A DNA stretch of 64,000 nt, from IMG/VR virus record IMGVR_UViG_3300032053_000050, positions 7,803-71,802 of that record, one strand, 5' to 3'. Below, piece by piece: positions 8,301-45,841 of the stretch (positions within the stretch are counted from its first letter, which is position 1; each line of letters begins with the position of its first letter). The notes beneath the pieces are model-generated. The model was not told the origin of the DNA and ran no database searches. It was given only the letters and a program-made list of their open reading frames with translations. Source of the DNA: a virus. The position numbers were made by a program, and so were the translations under genes.

Positions 8301-8710
8301 CAAAAAAATTACAATACATCGATTACGAATGTAAAATAGGAGAAAGAGTAAGATGGGAAGATATTACTGGTAAAAAGAAATTTGAAGGTGTTATATTAAA
8401 ATGGAAAGAAGAAGAAATTGCAATCGTTAAATTAGACGATGAAACTATTGTAGAGGTTAAGTGCTAAAAACTTTACTAATTACTAATCATATAAATACTT
8501 ATATTATTAATTAGTTTATGAAAAAACAAAAAAGGAAATTTTATTTATGAAGAATGCGGGAAATCATATATCAAGAAACAAACTCATATAAATTTAAGAA
8601 AGAAAATGATAAAATAAAAGCTCAAGAGAAATCTACTATTGATAAAGGCTTTAAATATATCATAATTATAGATAAAGATTACGATAAATTTATAAAAATA
8701 TAAATATATA

Positions 8711-9670
8711 ATGACAACGCCCATTGTTAATCAACTGTTCACAGAAAAATTTAGACCTAAGGAATTATCAAGTTTGATAATTCCTATACGTACAAGAAAA
8801 GAATTATCAAGAGGACTTATACAAAATGTATTATTTTTTGGATCAGCAGGAAGTGGCAAAACTTCGGCAGGATTTATATTGTCAAAAAATTATACTTATT
8901 TATATATTAATGCTTCTTCAGAAAGAGGCATCGATGTTATTCGTGAAAAAATAGGAAAGTTTTGTTCTACTATTTCGTTAGAAGGTGGAAGAGAAAAACT
9001 TAAATGTGTGTTTTTAGATGAAATGGATGGAGCCACAGAGGAATTCTTTAAAGCTTTAAGAGCAGTAATGGAAAAATATGCAAATGTTGCAAGATTTATA
9101 GCAACTGCAAATTATATCCAAAAAATTCCTGAACCTATACAATCAAGATTTAATTGTATTTCATTTGATGCAATCAATACTGAAGAAGAAGATTTTCTTA
9201 TAGAAGAATATAAGAAAAGAATGGCATTAATAATGAAAGCAATTAAGTTAACTTATAGTGAAGAAATCTTAGATAAATTTGTTCGTAATGATTTTCCAGA
9301 TATGAGAAGTCTTATGAATAAACTTCAATCATTTTATCTTCAAGGTATTACAGAACTTAATGATAAAAACTTTAATATCAATTTTGATTTTGAAGATTTA
9401 TTTAAGATGTGTTTAGGAAAATCAGATAAACCTTATGAAAACTATAAGATAATAGTTGGAGAATATGCATCAAAAATAGATGATGCTTTAGCTGCATTAG
9501 GTCAAGATTTTATAGAATACATTAAATCAAATAGTCCTAATCATATTTCAAAAATACCTTTGATTATAATATCAGTAGCAGAACATCAAGCTCAAAGAAC
9601 AATGGTAATCGACCCATTAATTACATTATTAAGTTGTGTAATGAAAATTCAATTAATAATAAACTCATGA
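8711..9670 (+). CDS. Clamp loader AAA+ subunit (T4 gp44 / RFC small-like)
   Basis: EKFRPK, Walker A GSAGSGKT, INASSERGIDVIR, LDEMD, IQSRF, PDMR. Confidence 0.9.
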   Translation: MTTPIVNQLFTEKFRPKELSSLIIPIRTRKELSRGLIQNVLFFGSAGSGKTSAGFILSKNYTYLYINASSERGIDVIREKIGKFCSTISLEGGREKLKCVFLDEMDGATEEFFKALRAVMEKYANVARFIATANYIQKIPEPIQSRFNCISFDAINTEEEDFLIEEYKKRMALIMKAIKLTYSEEILDKFVRNDFPDMRSLMNKLQSFYLQGITELNDKNFNINFDFEDLFKMCLGKSDKPYENYKIIVGEYASKIDDALAALGQDFIEYIKSNSPNHISKIPLIIISVAEHQAQRTMVIDPLITLLSCVMKIQLIINS

Positions 9671-18254: not shown

Positions 18255-18288
18255 CAGTTCTTTGATAAATTGTTTTAATAAAAAATAT

Positions 18289-18419
18289 GGGGGATAGCAA
18301 AGCAAATCACATTCTTCTTAGCTTTCCCAGCAATGTGGTGATTAGTAAGAATTACATCGCAAGGTAAAAATCAAATCTGAAATTTTGAAATCGCCGTTCA
18401 AATCGGTAATCCCCCACCA
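18289..18419 (+). ncRNA. Circularly permuted Y-like RNA with tRNA acceptor/T arm and encoded CCA
   Basis: GGGGGAT/ATCCCCC-A-CCA, T arm gccg-ttcaaat-cggt; interior holds the Y-stem strands in reversed order capped by GCAA. Confidence 0.7.
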
Positions 18420-18424
18420 ATAAT

Positions 18425-18494
18425 ACTTCTATGGTCTAACATTCATAGGACGCATCGGCCGATGTAATTTGGGTATGAAATCCCAATAGAGGTA
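18425..18494 (+). ncRNA. tRNA-like RNA lacking a normal anticodon loop
   Basis: acttcta/tagaggt acceptor, D arm, gcatc-ggcc-gatgt arm with 4-nt loop, ttggg/cccaa T arm. Confidence 0.5.
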
Positions 18495-18502
18495 AATTTT
18501 TA

Positions 18503-18583
18503 AAGTTGTAGTAAGGTAAATGAGTTACTTCGCCGAACCATTAAATTCAGTTAAAATGACACTCAAACCAAATTTCTCAACTT
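18503..18583 (+). ncRNA. Y-like RNA 1 (minimal)
   Basis: aagttg-tagtaa...tgagt-tacttcg...actca...aaatttct-caactt. Confidence 0.75.
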
Positions 18584-18588
18584 AATTT

Positions 18589-19619: not shown

Positions 19620-19688
19620 GGGATAGATTCTTTGGAGAAACCGGAACTGTAAATTCTCACCTAGTAGGTTCGATGCCTGCCTATCCCA
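19620..19688 (+). tRNA. tRNA-Tyr(GTA), compact atypical form
   Basis: gggatag/ctatccc; ggaa-ctgtaaa-ttct; reduced D arm. Confidence 0.65.
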
Positions 19689-19791
19689 CAAATATTTGAA
19701 ACAAGACTATACATTATAAAAAATAAAATTTTGGCACAAAGTAGATTGATATGGTAGTAACTACATGAGTGGCCACTCTACTACCAACAAT

Positions 19792-19866
19792 GGCCCGTTC
19801 GTCTAGATGGTTTAGGACATCGCCCCTTCAAAGCGAAGATCATGGATTCGAATTCCATACGGGCTA
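19792..19866 (+). tRNA. tRNA-Glu(TTC)
   Basis: Glu-type body GGCCCGTTCGTCTAG..GGTTTAGGAC; loop ccttcaa (C33). Confidence 0.8.
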
Positions 19867-20003: not shown

Positions 20004-20306
20004 ATGCAAGCATATAAATTATTCAGAATTCTTAAATCTGGTCATATTACATCTTTATTTATTAATAAATCAGAACATTTAAAAAGAAATGTTTGGATAG
20101 ATGCAAAAAGTTATCCAACAAAAGGTTTTAAAATAAGACCATATTGGCATTGTACAGAAAAACCTAATGCACCTCATTTAAGCATGAAAAATAGAGTATG
20201 GTTAAAAGTTGAAATGGAAAATTATGAAGAATTTATAAGACCAGAATATCAAGGTGGAAAATGGTTTTTAGCTAAAAAACTTAAAATATATAATAATATT
20301 ATTTAA
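20004..20306 (+). CDS. Hypothetical phage protein
   Basis: MQAYKLFR...RPYWHC...PHL. Confidence 0.55.
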   Translation: MQAYKLFRILKSGHITSLFINKSEHLKRNVWIDAKSYPTKGFKIRPYWHCTEKPNAPHLSMKNRVWLKVEMENYEEFIRPEYQGGKWFLAKKLKIYNNII

Positions 20307-20377
20307 AAAATATTTTTTTATATCAAAACTTTATATTATATTTGTACTATAAATAAAATATAGTTCTTTAACATATT

Positions 20378-21002
20378 AAGAGTGAGACAAAGAGTCAATA
20401 ACAATTATTTGCGTAAGTGAAGAAAGTGAGATTCGGCTTTCGAGGTAGCACTCGTAAAATCTACTAACGGCAGAAGTATAATAAAAGAGTTAAAGCTAGC
20501 AGAACACTCTATAAAACTTGACTTCGGATTTGGGTGACTATCCGCAAGGTGTCAATATGCAGATGAAACTGTATAACTGCAAGCACCCAGGCATTTAAGA
20601 AAAAACTTCGCATAAAATGAACATCTGCCAGTTGTTCAAAGTAATGTAAGAAGTCTCTGGAAAAAAGTAACTTGGCAGAGTGAAAGTGGAAGGAGTTTTA
20701 GTAGTAGTTTAATTGGCTAAAACACCGCGTGAAGTGGTAATATGGATTCGAATTCCATCTACTAACCAAAAAATCTGTTGAAGACAAACACTGGGTAACC
20801 AGGTCCACCAAGATTTGGACAGTTTATCGGATGATAGAGAGTGTTGAAACAAACAGCCAGAATCCTGGTTACAGGAGCGGTAATCTATTTAACTTGGTAA
20901 CAGATTTTTTACATAGCTCCTGTCAACGACAGAAAAAGTGTGAATCTATCTAAAATAGTACTTATAAAAGATAGAAAACCGATGAAAGATCGGCGGGAGC
21001 TA
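20378..21002 (+). ncRNA. Large multi-domain structured RNA (about 620 nt) with embedded tRNA-like element
   Basis: No + strand ORF, higher GC, follows promoter and boxA; helices gggtg/caccc, tgcag/ctgca, tctgcca/tggcaga, aaatctgtt/aacagattt, gtaaccagg/cctggttac, tagctcc/ggagcta. Confidence 0.65.
20698..20768 (+). ncRNA. tRNA-like module with non-canonical anticodon loop
   Basis: ttagtag/ctactaa-cca, D arm, accgc-gtgaa-gtggt, T arm atgga-ttcgaat-tccat. Confidence 0.65.
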
Positions 21003-21005
21003 CCT

Positions 21006-21087
21006 GTTAAGATGTTGTAAATGGAAGCCAAGCTGGTTTCAAAAACCAGTGTTGAAAGACGTGAGGGTTCGAATCCCTCTCTTAACA
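21006..21087 (+). tRNA. tRNA-Leu(CAA)
   Basis: ctggt-ttcaaaa-accag; long variable arm. Confidence 0.85.
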
Positions 21088-21119
21088 CTAATTTGTAGTA
21101 TTTATTTAATAATAAAAAA

Positions 21120-21374
21120 ATGTTATTAATTCTTGAAATTCTTTTAACTATTTTTGCATGGCGAAAAGGTTGGAAATGGTTTGCTTTACTTCCATTAGGT
21201 ATTGGTGTAGTAATTAGTTTCTTAATAGGCATTATTGTTGGAGCATCTGGCGGATCAGTTGATACTGCTAAAGGTATAGGACTTGTATTTGATATTTTAG
21301 TTATTATTATTCTTGTTGTTATGAATATTAAAAAACCCGATGAAACTAAATCTGATGTCACAAAAGAATTCTAA
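21120..21374 (+). CDS. Small membrane protein
   Basis: Three hydrophobic segments. Confidence 0.6.
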   Translation: MLLILEILLTIFAWRKGWKWFALLPLGIGVVISFLIGIIVGASGGSVDTAKGIGLVFDILVIIILVVMNIKKPDETKSDVTKEF

Positions 21375-27701: not shown

Positions 27702-29417
27702 ATGGCAAAATTTAATGAAAAAAGAATTTCTAAATCAGAAGTAAAACCTGCATTAACTCATCAAGGCGGCGCAGGTCTTACACAAAAAAGTGAGCATGAA
27801 TTAATTGGAATTTTAGCTACGGGAATACAAAATACGTACTATGAAAAAGAAACAGAACGTGAAATACGTTTTAAAGAAGTTTTTGCAAAAGTTGCGCAAA
27901 AAAATGCATTATTCGCAGCAAAAGCTTTAATATATGCTCGTACTGTATTTGGTCAAAGAAGTGTAACTCATTATGGTGCTGTAGAAATTATACCATTTTT
28001 AAGTGGTAATGAAATAGCAAAAAAATTCTTTTCAAAAAGAGATAGAAAAGAAAATAAAGGAGGTATAGTTTATAGATTAGATGATATGGCTGAAATATTA
28101 GCATGTTATCAAGCTAAAAATGGAATTGATGCGCCTTTACCTAATGCTTTAAAAAAGGGATTTAAAGATGCTATAGAAAAAAGTGATGCATATCAGTTAG
28201 CAAAATACCAGATGAAGTCTCGTGGTGTAAGCCTTGTTGACATCGTTAACTTGGTTCGTCCTATACCTACTAAGATGAATGGAACCATTACTGTGACTGA
28301 AGAAGAATACCAGAAGGCTATCAAGGGAACTAAATTCGTTCCAGGACATAAGAAGTACAGAGCAGAATATGCAGAAATCCCTGTTCGTAATGAAAAAGGA
28401 ACTACTATTCCAGCACTTCATGCACTTGTTATCGGATTGCTTAAGCAGTTCAACACTGTTGAAGACAAGAACACCGAAGCAGGTAAGGTTGTAGCCGAAA
28501 AAGTTAAGAAGGGTGAAATCACTGCTGAACAGGCAACTGTTGAACTTAATGAAGCTAAGACTGACAACTATGTAGACCTTATTAAGACTAAGAAGATTGG
28601 GTACCTTGCATTACTTCGTAACGTACGTAACATTCTTAAGACCAATGATACTGCATTACTTGACATGGCTTGTGAACTTTTAGTTCAGAAGGACTTCATT
28701 GTTAAGTCACTTGTATGGCCTACTCAAATTGATGTAGCTTTAGAAATTATGACTCTTGAATTCTCTGGCGCGCAAATGGCAAAAGTTACTAAGGCTCTTG
28801 GACTCGCTTATGAATTAGCAATTCCTAATCTTGAACAACTTCTTCCAGAAGGTAAAACTGCAGTCGTATTCGATACTTCAGGTTCTATGGGAGGTGAGAA
28901 CCATATTTATCTTGATGCAAAAAAATCTATTAATAAAAAACCTGCTGATAAAGCTGCGCTTATAGCTGCAACTTTTGCCAAAGGAGTTAATGGAGATGTA
29001 TACCATTTTGGGTCTACTTCTGAACAAATTATAGGATGGAATCCAAATGATTCTGTTAATACTTTAAAACAGAAGTTTATGTCATATAACGGACGTTGTG
29101 GTCATGGAACAGACTTTGGAGCTTGCTTCAAATTATTTGAACACATGAATAAACAATATGATAGAATTATTCTTATTTCTGACGAACAAGATGGTTATGG
29201 AAATGTAGAAAGCAATTACAAAGGATATTGCCAAAAGTTTGGAACTCCATACGTGTATATCATAAACATATGTGGATATGCTGTAACTTCTCCTATAAAA
29301 AGTGGTGATAGAGTATTTCGTTTATACGGATACAATCAAGATTTATATGACAAAATAACTCAAATGGAAATAAATCCTCAGATTGTTATAGAAGAAATTA
29401 ACAAAATAGAAATTTAA
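27702..29417 (+). CDS. Ro60-like TROVE domain RNA-binding protein with C-terminal vWA
   Basis: YQLAKY, SLVDIVNL.RP, GYLALLRNVRNIL, VVFDTSGSM MIDAS, GTD, ILISDEQ. Confidence 0.9.
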   Translation: MAKFNEKRISKSEVKPALTHQGGAGLTQKSEHELIGILATGIQNTYYEKETEREIRFKEVFAKVAQKNALFAAKALIYARTVFGQRSVTHYGAVEIIPFLSGNEIAKKFFSKRDRKENKGGIVYRLDDMAEILACYQAKNGIDAPLPNALKKGFKDAIEKSDAYQLAKYQMKSRGVSLVDIVNLVRPIPTKMNGTITVTEEEYQKAIKGTKFVPGHKKYRAEYAEIPVRNEKGTTIPALHALVIGLLKQFNTVEDKNTEAGKVVAEKVKKGEITAEQATVELNEAKTDNYVDLIKTKKIGYLALLRNVRNILKTNDTALLDMACELLVQKDFIVKSLVWPTQIDVALEIMTLEFSGAQMAKVTKALGLAYELAIPNLEQLLPEGKTAVVFDTSGSMGGENHIYLDAKKSINKKPADKAALIAATFAKGVNGDVYHFGSTSEQIIGWNPNDSVNTLKQKFMSYNGRCGHGTDFGACFKLFEHMNKQYDRIILISDEQDGYGNVESNYKGYCQKFGTPYVYIINICGYAVTSPIKSGDRVFRLYGYNQDLYDKITQMEINPQIVIEEINKIEI

Positions 29418-41450: not shown

Positions 41451-41451
41451 C

Positions 41452-41589
41452 TAAACTGTAGTAAACTAGCGAGTTACTTCGTACTCAAACGATCAGAGAA
41501 AGTTCAATTCTTTCATCCAGCTCCAAATATTTGCTGGATTAGTGTAACGGTAGCACAATAAAAATACTCAAGGTAAATTTCTCAGTTTA
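41452..41589 (+). ncRNA. Y-like RNA 4, YrlA-type (Y stem plus permuted tRNA module)
   Basis: Y stem encloses T arm gaaag-ttcaatt-ctttc, loop-closed acceptor atccagc/gctggat, then D arm gtgt-aacggta-gcac. Confidence 0.85.
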
Positions 41590-41593
41590 AAAT

Positions 41594-43037: not shown

Positions 43038-43118
43038 GTTTATATCGTACTTAAAAATGGAAAGACACCGGCAATTGTATTATGGCCGGAGATGAGGGTT
43101 CAAATCCCTTTATAAACT
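43038..43118 (+). ncRNA. tRNA-like RNA with 12-nt anticodon loop
   Basis: gtttata/tataaac; ccggc-aattgtattatg-gccgg; T arm gaggg-ttcaaat-ccctt. Confidence 0.6.
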
Positions 43119-43597: not shown

Positions 43598-44134
43598 ATG
43601 ACACATATATGTAAATATTGTAATGCAGAATTTGATACAGGCCCGCATTTAGGCAATCATGTTAGAAGTTGTAAATTACATCCCAATCATGATGAAAGAA
43701 TTAGAAAAATTTCTGAAACATGGTTAGGAAAACATCATTCTGAAAAAACAAAAAAACAATTATCTAATTCTGGAAAATTGGCACATAAAGAAGGAAGAGC
43801 ATGGAATATAGGAATGAGCAGATGGAATAATGAAGCATCGTATCCTGAAAAATTCTTTATGAAAGTAATTGAAAATGAATTTGATGATAAAGAATATAAA
43901 AAAGAATACAATGTTGGAATTTACTCTCTTGATTTTGCATGGATTAATAAGAAAAAAGTTATAGAAATTGATGGCGATCAACACCAACATTTTGAAGAAT
44001 ATAAAGAAAGAGATAAAAGAAAAGACGCATATTTGATAAATGAAGGTTGGACAATTTTAAGAATACCTTGGAAAGATATGTGTGATAACACAAAAGAGCA
44101 AATTCAAATATGTAAGAATTTTATAATGGGGTAA
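43598..44134 (+). CDS. DUF559/Vsr-like endonuclease with Zn finger and NUMOD3
   Basis: YSLDFA, IEIDGDQH, RDKRKD..L...GWTILRI.W. Confidence 0.85.
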   Translation: MTHICKYCNAEFDTGPHLGNHVRSCKLHPNHDERIRKISETWLGKHHSEKTKKQLSNSGKLAHKEGRAWNIGMSRWNNEASYPEKFFMKVIENEFDDKEYKKEYNVGIYSLDFAWINKKKVIEIDGDQHQHFEEYKERDKRKDAYLINEGWTILRIPWKDMCDNTKEQIQICKNFIMG

Positions 44135-44277
44135 TAGCTCAATGGTAGAGCAATTGGCTGTACACAGATAGAAGTATCTGAAAAAATACTTTAGATGAAG
44201 TCTTATGAAGTTAAAGAATTCATAATTCTCTTCATCTACTAACCAATAGGTTCGGGGTTCGATACCCTGTTACCCCG
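44128..44277 (+). tRNA. tRNA-Asn(GTT) interrupted by a 78-nt insert in the anticodon loop
   Basis: ggggtaa/ttacccc-G; attggctgt [44162-44239] taaccaat. Confidence 0.7.
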
Positions 44278-45212: not shown

Positions 45213-45285
45213 GGTGTTATTAGTGTTAGCGGTAGCACGTCTGTTTGTGAAGCAGATAGGCTCGATTCGAATTCGAGATAACACC
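45213..45285 (+). tRNA. tRNA-His(GTG)
   Basis: tctgt-ttgtgaa-gcaga; G-1 and C73. Confidence 0.88.
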
Positions 45286-45327
45286 CAATTTTAAGATATT
45301 AAAACGTGTCTTAGAAATAAGACTATT

Positions 45328-45535
45328 TATGAGAGACTGTTGACTGGACCCGGGGGCAGAATCCGGCATCTCCACTAATATAAAAATCTTTGGGGATGAT
45401 TTAGGTTTGACAGCAACATAGAAGTAGTAAAGATAGTTTTAATAACGCAAGTAAACGGCGAAAATAGTTACAAATTACAAATGGCGGCTTAGAGTCTTTA
45501 TTTGTAGGTGTAGGACCCTACCAAAGTGGGTCCAA
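45328..45535 (+). ncRNA. ssrA: Circularly permuted (two-piece) tmRNA
   Basis: Acceptor 3' piece ccggg-ggcagaa-tccgg-catctcc-a (ends 45374) lies upstream of GGGGATG..GGTTTGAC (45392); G3:U70; tag GENSYKLQMAA* at 45457-45492; outer ends approximate. Confidence 0.85.
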
Positions 45536-45537
45536 CC

Positions 45538-45611
45538 AAGCCCGTAGCATAACTGAATAATGCATTTCGCTACGAACGAAAAAATTGAGAGTTTGAGTCT
45601 CTCCGGGCTTA
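45538..45611 (+). tRNA. tRNA-Arg(ACG)
   Basis: tttcg-ctacgaa-cgaaa. Confidence 0.85.
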
Positions 45612-45629: not shown

Positions 45630-45703
45630 CCTCTGGTGGCATAATTGGTTGGCGCAGAAGTCTTATATACTTAAGGTTGTGGGTTCGAGTCCCACTCAGA
45701 GGA
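45630..45703 (+). tRNA. tRNA-Ile(TAT)
   Basis: aagt-cttatat-actt. Confidence 0.8.
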
Positions 45704-45712
45704 CAATTAATT

Positions 45713-45787
45713 GACCTGATAACTCAATTTGAATAGAGTAATAGCCTTCTAAGCTATAAGTTGTGAGTTTGAGTCTCACTCAGGTCA
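45713..45787 (+). tRNA. tRNA-Arg(TCT)
   Basis: atagc-cttctaa-gctat. Confidence 0.88.
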
Positions 45788-45841
45788 CAAATAAATGCCA
45801 ATATGTTTTTTTCTATCAAAAATTAGTATTATATTTGTACT

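Follow-up and report, generated by a model that had tools for sequence, protein, structure and literature searches.

GOLLD is a large phage RNA of transfer RNA (tRNA) islands, in which a variable 5′ region is followed by a conserved 3′ region, sometimes with a tRNA between the two (available parts of bioRxiv 10.1101/2024.12.08.627333 and PMC12990946). ROOL, a phage and prophage RNA of about 600 nucleotides (nt), is also found near tRNA islands (bioRxiv 10.1101/2024.12.08.627333, available part). Bacterial and phage Y RNAs bear tRNA-like domains, and in YrlA the order is permuted: the T arm comes first, followed by a closed acceptor-like stem-loop and the D arm, and the ends of the RNA form the Ro60-binding stem; YrlA with an acceptor stem of 7 base pairs (bp) is cleavable by RNase P (available part of PMC4201824). 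The locus considered here, positions 20378–21002 of a 64,000-nt stretch of viral DNA (the window), is a noncoding RNA (ncRNA) candidate with an embedded tRNA-like element and can be compared with each of these systems. In the tRNA cluster of phage T4, the structured species 1 and 2 RNAs are co-transcribed with tRNAs and released by the tRNA-processing enzymes, and their function is not known. To our knowledge, nobody knows the function of the cage-forming giant RNAs GOLLD and ROOL of phage tRNA islands.

A sequence-only reading of the locus described one ornate RNA of about 620 nt. The stretch is better described as a mosaic of modules than as one ornate RNA; it lies outside every known family, and its 3′ half is well supported. 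The modules are folded and are shuffled among related phages.

Folded modules and their exchange among relatives

The window covers bases 7803–71802 of a 71.8-kb IMG/VR virus record, which is regarded as a jumbo-phage fragment because its CheckV completeness is only 18%. The window is AT-rich and holds two tRNA islands, with 26 tRNA or transfer-messenger RNA (tmRNA) genes called by ARAGORN, including a permuted tmRNA. The parts of the locus, in their order along the DNA, are as follows:

20294–20358, plus strand: repeated phage promoter-like element, which includes TATATTTGTACTA at 20337–20349
20362–20371, plus strand: boxA-like antitermination motif AGTTCTTTAA, identified by motif enrichment and likeness to rrnH
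20378–20697, plus strand: segment (a), the GC-rich orphan 5′ part, free of open reading frames (ORFs)
about 20532–20596, plus strand: sub-module a2 of segment (a), a junction closed by GGGUG/CACCC, with a conserved 25-nt word after it
20698–20766, plus strand: element (b), tRNA-like (RF00005, 44 bits, E = 6.5e-8; gathering score 29)
20767–20913, plus strand: domain (c), multi-hairpin, with a closing helix of 10–12 bp (about 20768–20779 with 20900–20911)
20908–21005, plus strand: domain (d), a four-helix junction with an outer helix (20915–20922 with 20994–21001) and three inner hairpins
21006–21088, plus strand: tRNA-Leu(CAA), called by ARAGORN (RF00005, 48.5 bits), the downstream boundary of the unit

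The unit from boxA to domain (d) measures 644 nt (20362–21005), and its last parts, from element (b) to tRNA-Leu(CAA), are spaced by only 0–3 nt. The GC content is 0.36–0.395 over 20400–21000, compared with 0.185–0.26 just upstream and 0.265–0.32 downstream, as the sequence-only reading had noted in general terms. Its claim that there is no credible ORF also holds. Under table 11, the longest plus-strand ORF inside the stretch has 40 amino acids (20831–20953). The minus strand contains frames of 34–47 amino acids and a GTG frame of 150 amino acids (20909–21361), without a Pfam match, which passes antisense through the conserved downstream gene and tRNA-Leu. A gene hidden by another genetic code was rejected, as neither reading TAG as glutamine nor table 4 gives a credible plus-strand frame.

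The 3′ 240 nt, which consist of two closed domains, fold far better than expected (z = −4.85), and none of 200 shuffles is as good. Domain (c) alone has a fold z of −3.45, and its closing helix begins one base after the tRNA-like element. A second copy occurs in metagenome contig L015, where 848–954 is 79% identical to window 20804–20911 and 770–792 matches window 20768–20790; there, the domain sits alone between tRNA-Glu and tRNA-Leu(taa). None of the 28 consensus pairs is broken in either copy, and 6 are changed on both sides; of these, two in the closing helix have gone from A-U to U-A. Such a level of covariation was reached by 5 of 500 shuffles, and slid controls gave 0–1 double changes. 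A contig of sequencing run X4 adds a G20867–C20872 to C–G exchange. Searches with a 16-nt core of the domain returned five hits, all by chance and in coding DNA, and a 25-nt core had no hits in genome contigs.

Domain (d) has a fold z of −4.11; one of its inner hairpins carries a conserved GAAAG loop, and 3 nt separate the domain from tRNA-Leu. Window 20905–21081 matches L015 3409–3585, also directly before tRNA-Leu(caa). The window and L015 copies of this domain served to build a model (R2), whose independent members are L005 (38.7 bits), L023 (51.6 bits) and L025/L026 (51.4 bits; the two contigs are identical there). With L015 included, the matches have E-values from 2e-6 to 3e-9, and a partial match is present in L002 (20.3 bits). 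Among five distinct sequences and 25 pairs, 94.3% of the cells are paired and 17 pairs are changed on both sides; none of 500 shuffles reaches this level and slid controls give 1–3, a margin which is large even though the alignment was fitted to the model and thereby favours the structure. The covariation of domain (d) is strong enough to define a new RNA family. The divergent X4 contig (408 nt) spans 20795–21002 with 33 differences. Its listed substitutions touch 12 pairs: compensation is seen in 3, a wobble pair is retained in 4 and pairing is lost in 1, and the remaining 4 allow no judgement, since changes near the ends of the aligned piece are not listed. In L002 the 3′ hairpin of the domain falls in the terminal part of an ORF. 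Where the window and L015 differ, the hairpin pairs are preserved and the amino acids of a would-be frame are altered, and in the window this frame is closed. The folds of (c) and (d) are therefore supported by covariation, which reaches 6 of 28 and 17 of 25 pairs; segment (a) has no such support.

The relatives that carry these modules were found by several routes. The search with the Ro60 protein of the window gave five IMG/VR loci with 71–77% identity, one of which comes from a complete 405-kb genome. The Ro60 orthologue itself (27702–29417, 571 amino acids, TROVE and vWA domains; TROVE E = 4.4e-7; phrog_850 'RNA-binding protein', E = 7.5e-27) is encoded 6.7 kb downstream of the stretch on the same strand, and its gene is syntenic in 5 of 5 IMG/VR relatives. 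At the DNA level, the search of these five relatives returned only the last 27 nt of the stretch and tRNA-Leu. A flanking protein of 154 amino acids gave no relatives in its search, and the conserved downstream protein of 63 amino acids was found in IMG/VR only in G001/G005, and also in L015 (L014 being an overlapping copy). The tRNA-Leu(CAA) gene, which starts 3 nt after 21002 as previously described, is syntenic in L002/L006 and L015.

The site upstream of this tRNA varies among the relatives. L005 has an endonuclease-like ORF of 219 amino acids, L002/L006 have a truncated zinc-finger ORF of 111 amino acids, L003 has a GC-rich boxA-led RNA of 640 nt, and L015 has GOLLD together with an RNA of the type called R1 below. 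In L015, domains (c) and (d) are 2.4 kb apart, each beside a tRNA, with GOLLD and the R1-type RNA in between. As (c), (d) and the 25-nt word of a2 occur separately in relatives, the description of the locus as a mosaic is supported. Of the two options left by the sequence-only reading, a new GOLLD/ROOL-like class or several adjacent RNAs, the second is favoured by the separation of (c) and (d) in L015 and by the recurrence of (d) and a2 elsewhere.

Endonuclease-like ORFs in the tRNA islands of the relatives are located at L005 6185–6817, L002/L006 2238–2554 and L004 4610–5263. They are of the zinc-finger type, that of L004 being GIY-YIG-like by eye, and lie at or near the site of the window RNA. 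In addition, L002, L003, L004 and L026 carry a tRNA with a CTA anticodon, possibly an amber suppressor.

R1-type is a label coined in this analysis for a group of boxA-led RNAs that has no Rfam 15 family. After boxA, their 5′ domain contains a hairpin, a word resembling 23S ribosomal RNA (rRNA) and a covarying hairpin with a GCGA loop. Members are located at L003 4132–4783, L015 3104–3508, L005 7550–8257, L023 about 8430–9039 and L025/L026 (L026 985 to at least 1365). The word is identical to E. coli 23S rRNA 1912–1933 over up to 22 nt, with 22 of 22 in L003 (E = 1.9e-7 against the rrn operon), and from this likeness the domain could mimic that region of the rRNA. The R1-type RNAs match neither an Rfam family nor the large-subunit (LSU) rRNA model; in Rfam 15, the L003 counterpart of the stretch has no family and the L015 counterpart has GOLLD only. 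Domain (d) starts 140–465 nt after the end of the R1 5′ domain on the same strand in L015, L005, L023 and L025/L026, and at one site the otherwise similar L026 and L003 differ, L026 having the domain and L003 lacking it. Because of this recurrence downstream of R1 and this presence or absence, the domain is regarded as a cassette within larger boxA-led RNAs of about 405–708 nt.

In the window, a possible short relative of the R1-type RNAs is the spacer between tRNA-Met and tRNA-Ala (41451–41590). It opens with a copy of the first R1 hairpin (13.4 bits and E = 0.51 with the R1 model; E = 0.1 with nhmmer), and at 41498 a hairpin resembling a T arm is present.

Promoter, boxA and the 5′ half of the unit

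The promoter and boxA proposed by the sequence-only reading are both borne out by enrichment. The word TATATTTGTACTA is found at 20337 and in a second exact copy at 45830; with at most one mismatch it occurs 6 times against 1.36 expected, and none of 100 shuffles reaches 6. The surrounding element (20294–20358) is multi-copy in the metagenome contigs of four runs, with a depth of 295 against a baseline of 10.9 (27-fold). It is 76% identical to L002/L006 9418–9485, located upstream of their Ro60 gene, and a word like TATATTTGTACTA precedes GOLLD in L015. The motif AGTTCTTTRA has 7 occurrences where 0.93 would be expected, and the core of AGTTCTTTAA shares 10 of 11 letters with the boxA of the E. 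coli rrnH leader (L010 128–140). The same motif is located directly 5′ of GOLLD (L015 1811) and of R1-type RNAs (L003 4132, L015 3104, L005 7550). In this phage group, boxA stands ahead of ncRNAs. With its core close 3′ of a promoter and before a structured ncRNA, AGTTCTTTAA corresponds to an rrn-type boxA, and is a putative binding site of NusB/NusE.

Another boxA in the window, at 18256 directly after tRNA-Cys, heads a GC-rich and ORF-poor stretch (18256–18588). Within it, at about 18288–18420, the ends pair like an acceptor stem and there is a T-arm-like hairpin, an ACCA-like end and a long insert; this tRNA- or tmRNA-like element is called by no tool.

Element (b) aligns to positions 1–71 of the tRNA model in the canonical arm order and with all four arms. 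A perfect 7-bp acceptor stem is present together with the D and T arms, and all four stems are intact. In place of the 7-nt anticodon loop there is a 5-bp stem with a 5-nt GUGAA loop, where the element has 5 nt and the tRNA model 9. Folded alone, it forms a cloverleaf with a minimum free energy of −17.2 kcal/mol (z = −2.37). The tRNA-like element with a 5-nt loop is thus as the sequence-only reading had seen it, and because of that loop, the missing 7-nt anticodon loop and the absence of an ARAGORN call, it is interpreted as tRNA-like rather than as a decoding tRNA. That the acceptor, D and T stems are intact speaks against recent decay, and selection on them is conjectural. RNase P reads the acceptor stem and the T arm, a determinant stated for YrlA (available part of PMC4201824).

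The 17-nt T arm of element (b) recurs unchanged in the tRNA-Glu at 19842 of the window, and the element occupies the site of a real tRNA-Glu in L015, where the following spacer is 87% identical over 23 nt. Among candidate tRNA parents none is clearly closest (best 52 of 70 identities), and pattern searches with the anticodon arm found no homologues (0 hits and 1 chance hit).

Further tRNA-like structures are scattered over the islands. The window region 19620–19690 has a perfect T arm (19664) and a paired acceptor, with no ARAGORN call and a score below the Rfam threshold. Genes for tRNAs with inserts of about 80–150 nt are present at 44128–44277 of the window (54.9 bits over 150 nt) and at L015 1054–1265. 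Unannotated T-arm hairpins occur at 43094, 43273, 43411 and 43539, and the permuted tmRNA, of the two-piece type, is located at 45284–45583 (RF04321, 65.1 bits), with a tag peptide called by ARAGORN.

The 5′ 300 nt have a fold z of +0.28, and 118 of 200 shuffles gave folds as good or better; a second test of segment (a) gave z = +0.08 and no thermodynamic signal. The proposal of one RNA of 625 nt is not confirmed, as support from folding and comparison is confined to the 3′ 240 nt. In the same test, the bona fide GOLLD 3′ half of L015 scores −0.75 and a conserved R1-type RNA +2.39, and since these RNAs show no signal either, the z-score is uninformative for segment (a). Its GC content is 38%, and that of the intergenic DNA of the genome is below 20%. 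The 25-nt word (20572–20596) is identical in all 25 positions in L027, where it closes an element of about 125 nt after tRNA-Leu(taa) and before an ORF; the neighbouring genes there are just 66–78% identical. The GGGUG/CACCC helix before the word is conserved in this comparison, without covariation. A contig of run X3 matches 20575–20611 with 3 differences.

Two assignments of the 5′ part were rejected. As an R1 domain, the region 20340–20720 reached at best 7.5 bits with filters off, over the promoter hairpin, compared with 64–166 bits for members. As a miniature 23S rRNA it found no match, the LSU model being silent in G000 and G002–G005 and BLAST against the E. coli rrn operon also silent. 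A three-member nhmmer profile matched domain (d) alone, weakly, and local alignment of segment (a) with 11 boxA-led RNAs gave z ≤ 3.7, the sole outlier including boxA itself.

Comparison with described RNAs

In Rfam 15, tRNA is the sole family that matches the stretch, both in the search of 20200–21150 at E ≤ 10 and in the window-wide search. Since this covariance search found no strong known family, the novelty suggested by the sequence-only reading stands for the parts, none of which matches an Rfam 15 family other than tRNA. BLASTN against public phage records matched the tRNA-Leu part alone, and the stretch is without a match in E. coli genomes. No published description of these modules was found in the literature on jumbo-phage ncRNA and GOLLD and on phage tRNA-like elements, as covered in articles rather than in the supplementary YrlA and GOLLD alignments.

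Membership in GOLLD or ROOL, which the sequence-only reading had brought up, is not borne out, as neither covariance model matches. For GOLLD (RF02032, a model of the conserved 3′ region; threshold 150 bits), a search with this family alone scored 7 candidates and gave no match at E ≤ 10 in G000, and no GOLLD was found in G000 and G002–G005, including the complete 405-kb relative. The positive control was detected: L015 2279–2757 scores 154.6 bits (gathering score 150), with a 5′ part from about 1811 and an embedded tRNA at 2352–2421, and it is preceded by a boxA and a promoter resembling those of the window. The analogy to GOLLD keeps some substance through relative L015, whose corresponding neighbourhood includes this genuine GOLLD, which encloses a tRNA and has its own boxA; at the locus itself there is no match. 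Both share the location in a phage tRNA island and a tRNA or tRNA-like insert. They differ in that the element embedded here is non-decoding, no model match is obtained, and (c) and (d) are separate in a relative. ROOL (RF03087; threshold 99.1 bits) was also rejected for lack of a match in the searches of the stretch, of the window and of G000, the last being a single-family test at E ≤ 10 that by itself is weak because its control genome was silent as well; the likeness is one of size, about 600 nt, and of tRNA-island surroundings.

YrlA (RF02553; threshold 69 bits) had no match on 20200–21150 at E ≤ 10 and was rejected. The sole YrlA match in the window, at 45651–45770, lies over ordinary tRNAs and is sub-threshold (26.8 bits). 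A non-decoding tRNA-like module and a genome that encodes Ro60 are common to both; element (b), however, has the canonical order, lies 6.7 kb from the Ro60 gene, and no Ro60-binding terminal stem was found for it.

The R1-type RNAs share with the locus the boxA start, domain (d), the tRNA island and the size (405–708 nt against 644 nt here). The R1-type RNA of L015 likewise abuts tRNA-Leu(CAA). The match of the window to the domain (d) part of this likeness follows by construction, R2 having been built from the window, and the independent cases are L005, L023 and L025/L026. The 5′ domain that defines the R1-type RNAs is not found in the window (best 7.5 bits). The species 1 and 2 RNAs of T4 resemble the layout of domain (c) in L015, flanked by two tRNAs; the comparison is one of layout alone, not of sizes or folds.

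A proposed tRNA-punctuated operon and its competitors

The reading preferred here, held with about even confidence, is that 20362–21088 is a segment of a boxA-antiterminated ncRNA–tRNA operon, a mosaic of independently folding modules punctuated by tRNAs. Transcription would start at the phage promoter, and host NusB/NusE-type antitermination at boxA would carry the polymerase through the structured RNA. RNase P is predicted to cut at the 5′ sides of element (b) and of tRNA-Leu, and the 3′ side of element (b) would be cut by RNase Z or a trimming nuclease. The products would be segment (a) of about 330 nt, a 69-nt non-decoding tRNA-like RNA and a (c+d) RNA of about 240 nt with both ends in helices. 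By analogy with what is suspected for GOLLD and ROOL, one may guess that the released RNAs are stable scaffolds or decoys that target the tRNA, ribosome or RNA-processing machinery of the host.

Several observations weigh against such an operon. The sequencing runs that contain the stretch are all sediment metagenome DNA, with no RNA runs among them. The covariation counts of (c) and (d) come from two to five sequences in model-fitted alignments. Segment (a) is without homologues in G000–G005, L014–L016 and L023–L026, save for the 25-nt word in L027, and since neither (a) nor (b) has homologues, selection on the two is conjectural. In relatives, domain (d) is part of a larger boxA-led RNA of 405–708 nt, and the X4 contig has (c) next to (d), like the window. 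The tRNAs embedded in GOLLD are thought to remain uncut (available part of PMC12990946). The 644-nt unit that runs from boxA to (d) is just as compatible with a single large boxA-led RNA like those of the relatives.

This leads to the first competitor, a single structured RNA of about 640 nt built like GOLLD, with a variable 5′ part, an uncut tRNA-like linker and a conserved 3′ part (c+d), which perhaps forms a multimer. The start, the size class and domain (d) of the window unit agree with those of the boxA-led RNAs of the relatives, the helical domains are packed with linkers of 0–3 nt, and the adjacency of (c) and (d) is not restricted to the window. In run X2, a joint of 20617 to 20770 would represent a form without element (b), as GOLLD only sometimes has a tRNA; the joint is weak, as it comes from a single contig (756 nt) in which one side is 26 nt long, 80% alike and within A-runs. 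The distance of 2.4 kb between (c) and (d) in L015 is difficult to reconcile with one RNA, as are the missing fold signal and homologues of segment (a), the silent GOLLD and ROOL models, and the centroid fold, in which segment (a) does not pair with the 3′ domains. A single RNA is unlikely on balance, and keeps the standing that it has because domain (d) elsewhere is always in a larger RNA and GOLLD tRNAs can stay uncut.

Slightly less probable is the explanation by debris at a hot spot of recombination or homing endonucleases, where segment (a) would be a leftover, element (b) a tRNA pseudogene minus two loop bases, and only (c) and (d) selected. The varied occupation of the site in relatives by endonuclease-like or zinc-finger ORFs, an R1-type RNA or GOLLD fits this explanation, and so do the missing homologues of (a) and (b) and the z of about 0 for (a). 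Debris would hardly be expected to have 38% GC among intergenic DNA of less than 20%, to retain a 25-nt word at 100% beside genes at 66–78%, or to leave every stem of element (b) intact; the flat z, as the GOLLD and R1-type values indicate, proves little.

A broader interpretation, also doubtful and a shade more so than debris, is that the stretch belongs to an undescribed modular class of giant jumbo-phage RNAs, boxA-led and 400–700 nt long, which act as single particles and possibly as multimers. Such a class would combine swappable domains, namely (c), (d) and R1 with its 23S-like word, with tRNA or tRNA-like inserts, all of them exchanged among phages.

Very improbable is that element (b) is the effector module of a Y RNA partnering the phage Ro60, as might be suggested by the Ro60 gene in the window, the tRNA-like domains of bacterial and phage Y RNAs (available part of PMC4201824) and the failure to find YrlA elsewhere in the window, given that RF02553 does not match, the order is canonical where that of YrlA is permuted (same part of PMC4201824), no flanking helix was found that could form a Ro60-binding stem, and element (b) lies 6.7 kb from the Ro60 gene.

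For the biology of these phages, the modular operon reading and its comparative basis have the following meaning. In one group of sediment jumbo phages, the tRNA-island niche holds unannotated folded RNA domains led by an rrn-type boxA, and these domains are exchanged in a cassette-like manner with GOLLD, an RNA carrying the 23S word and endonuclease genes. With its well-formed tRNA body and 5-nt loop, element (b) makes a clean candidate for a decoy or a processing handle. If the modules act together, the repertoire of large phage RNAs would be wider; if they act apart, the locus would be a phage example of tRNA-punctuated ncRNA operons.

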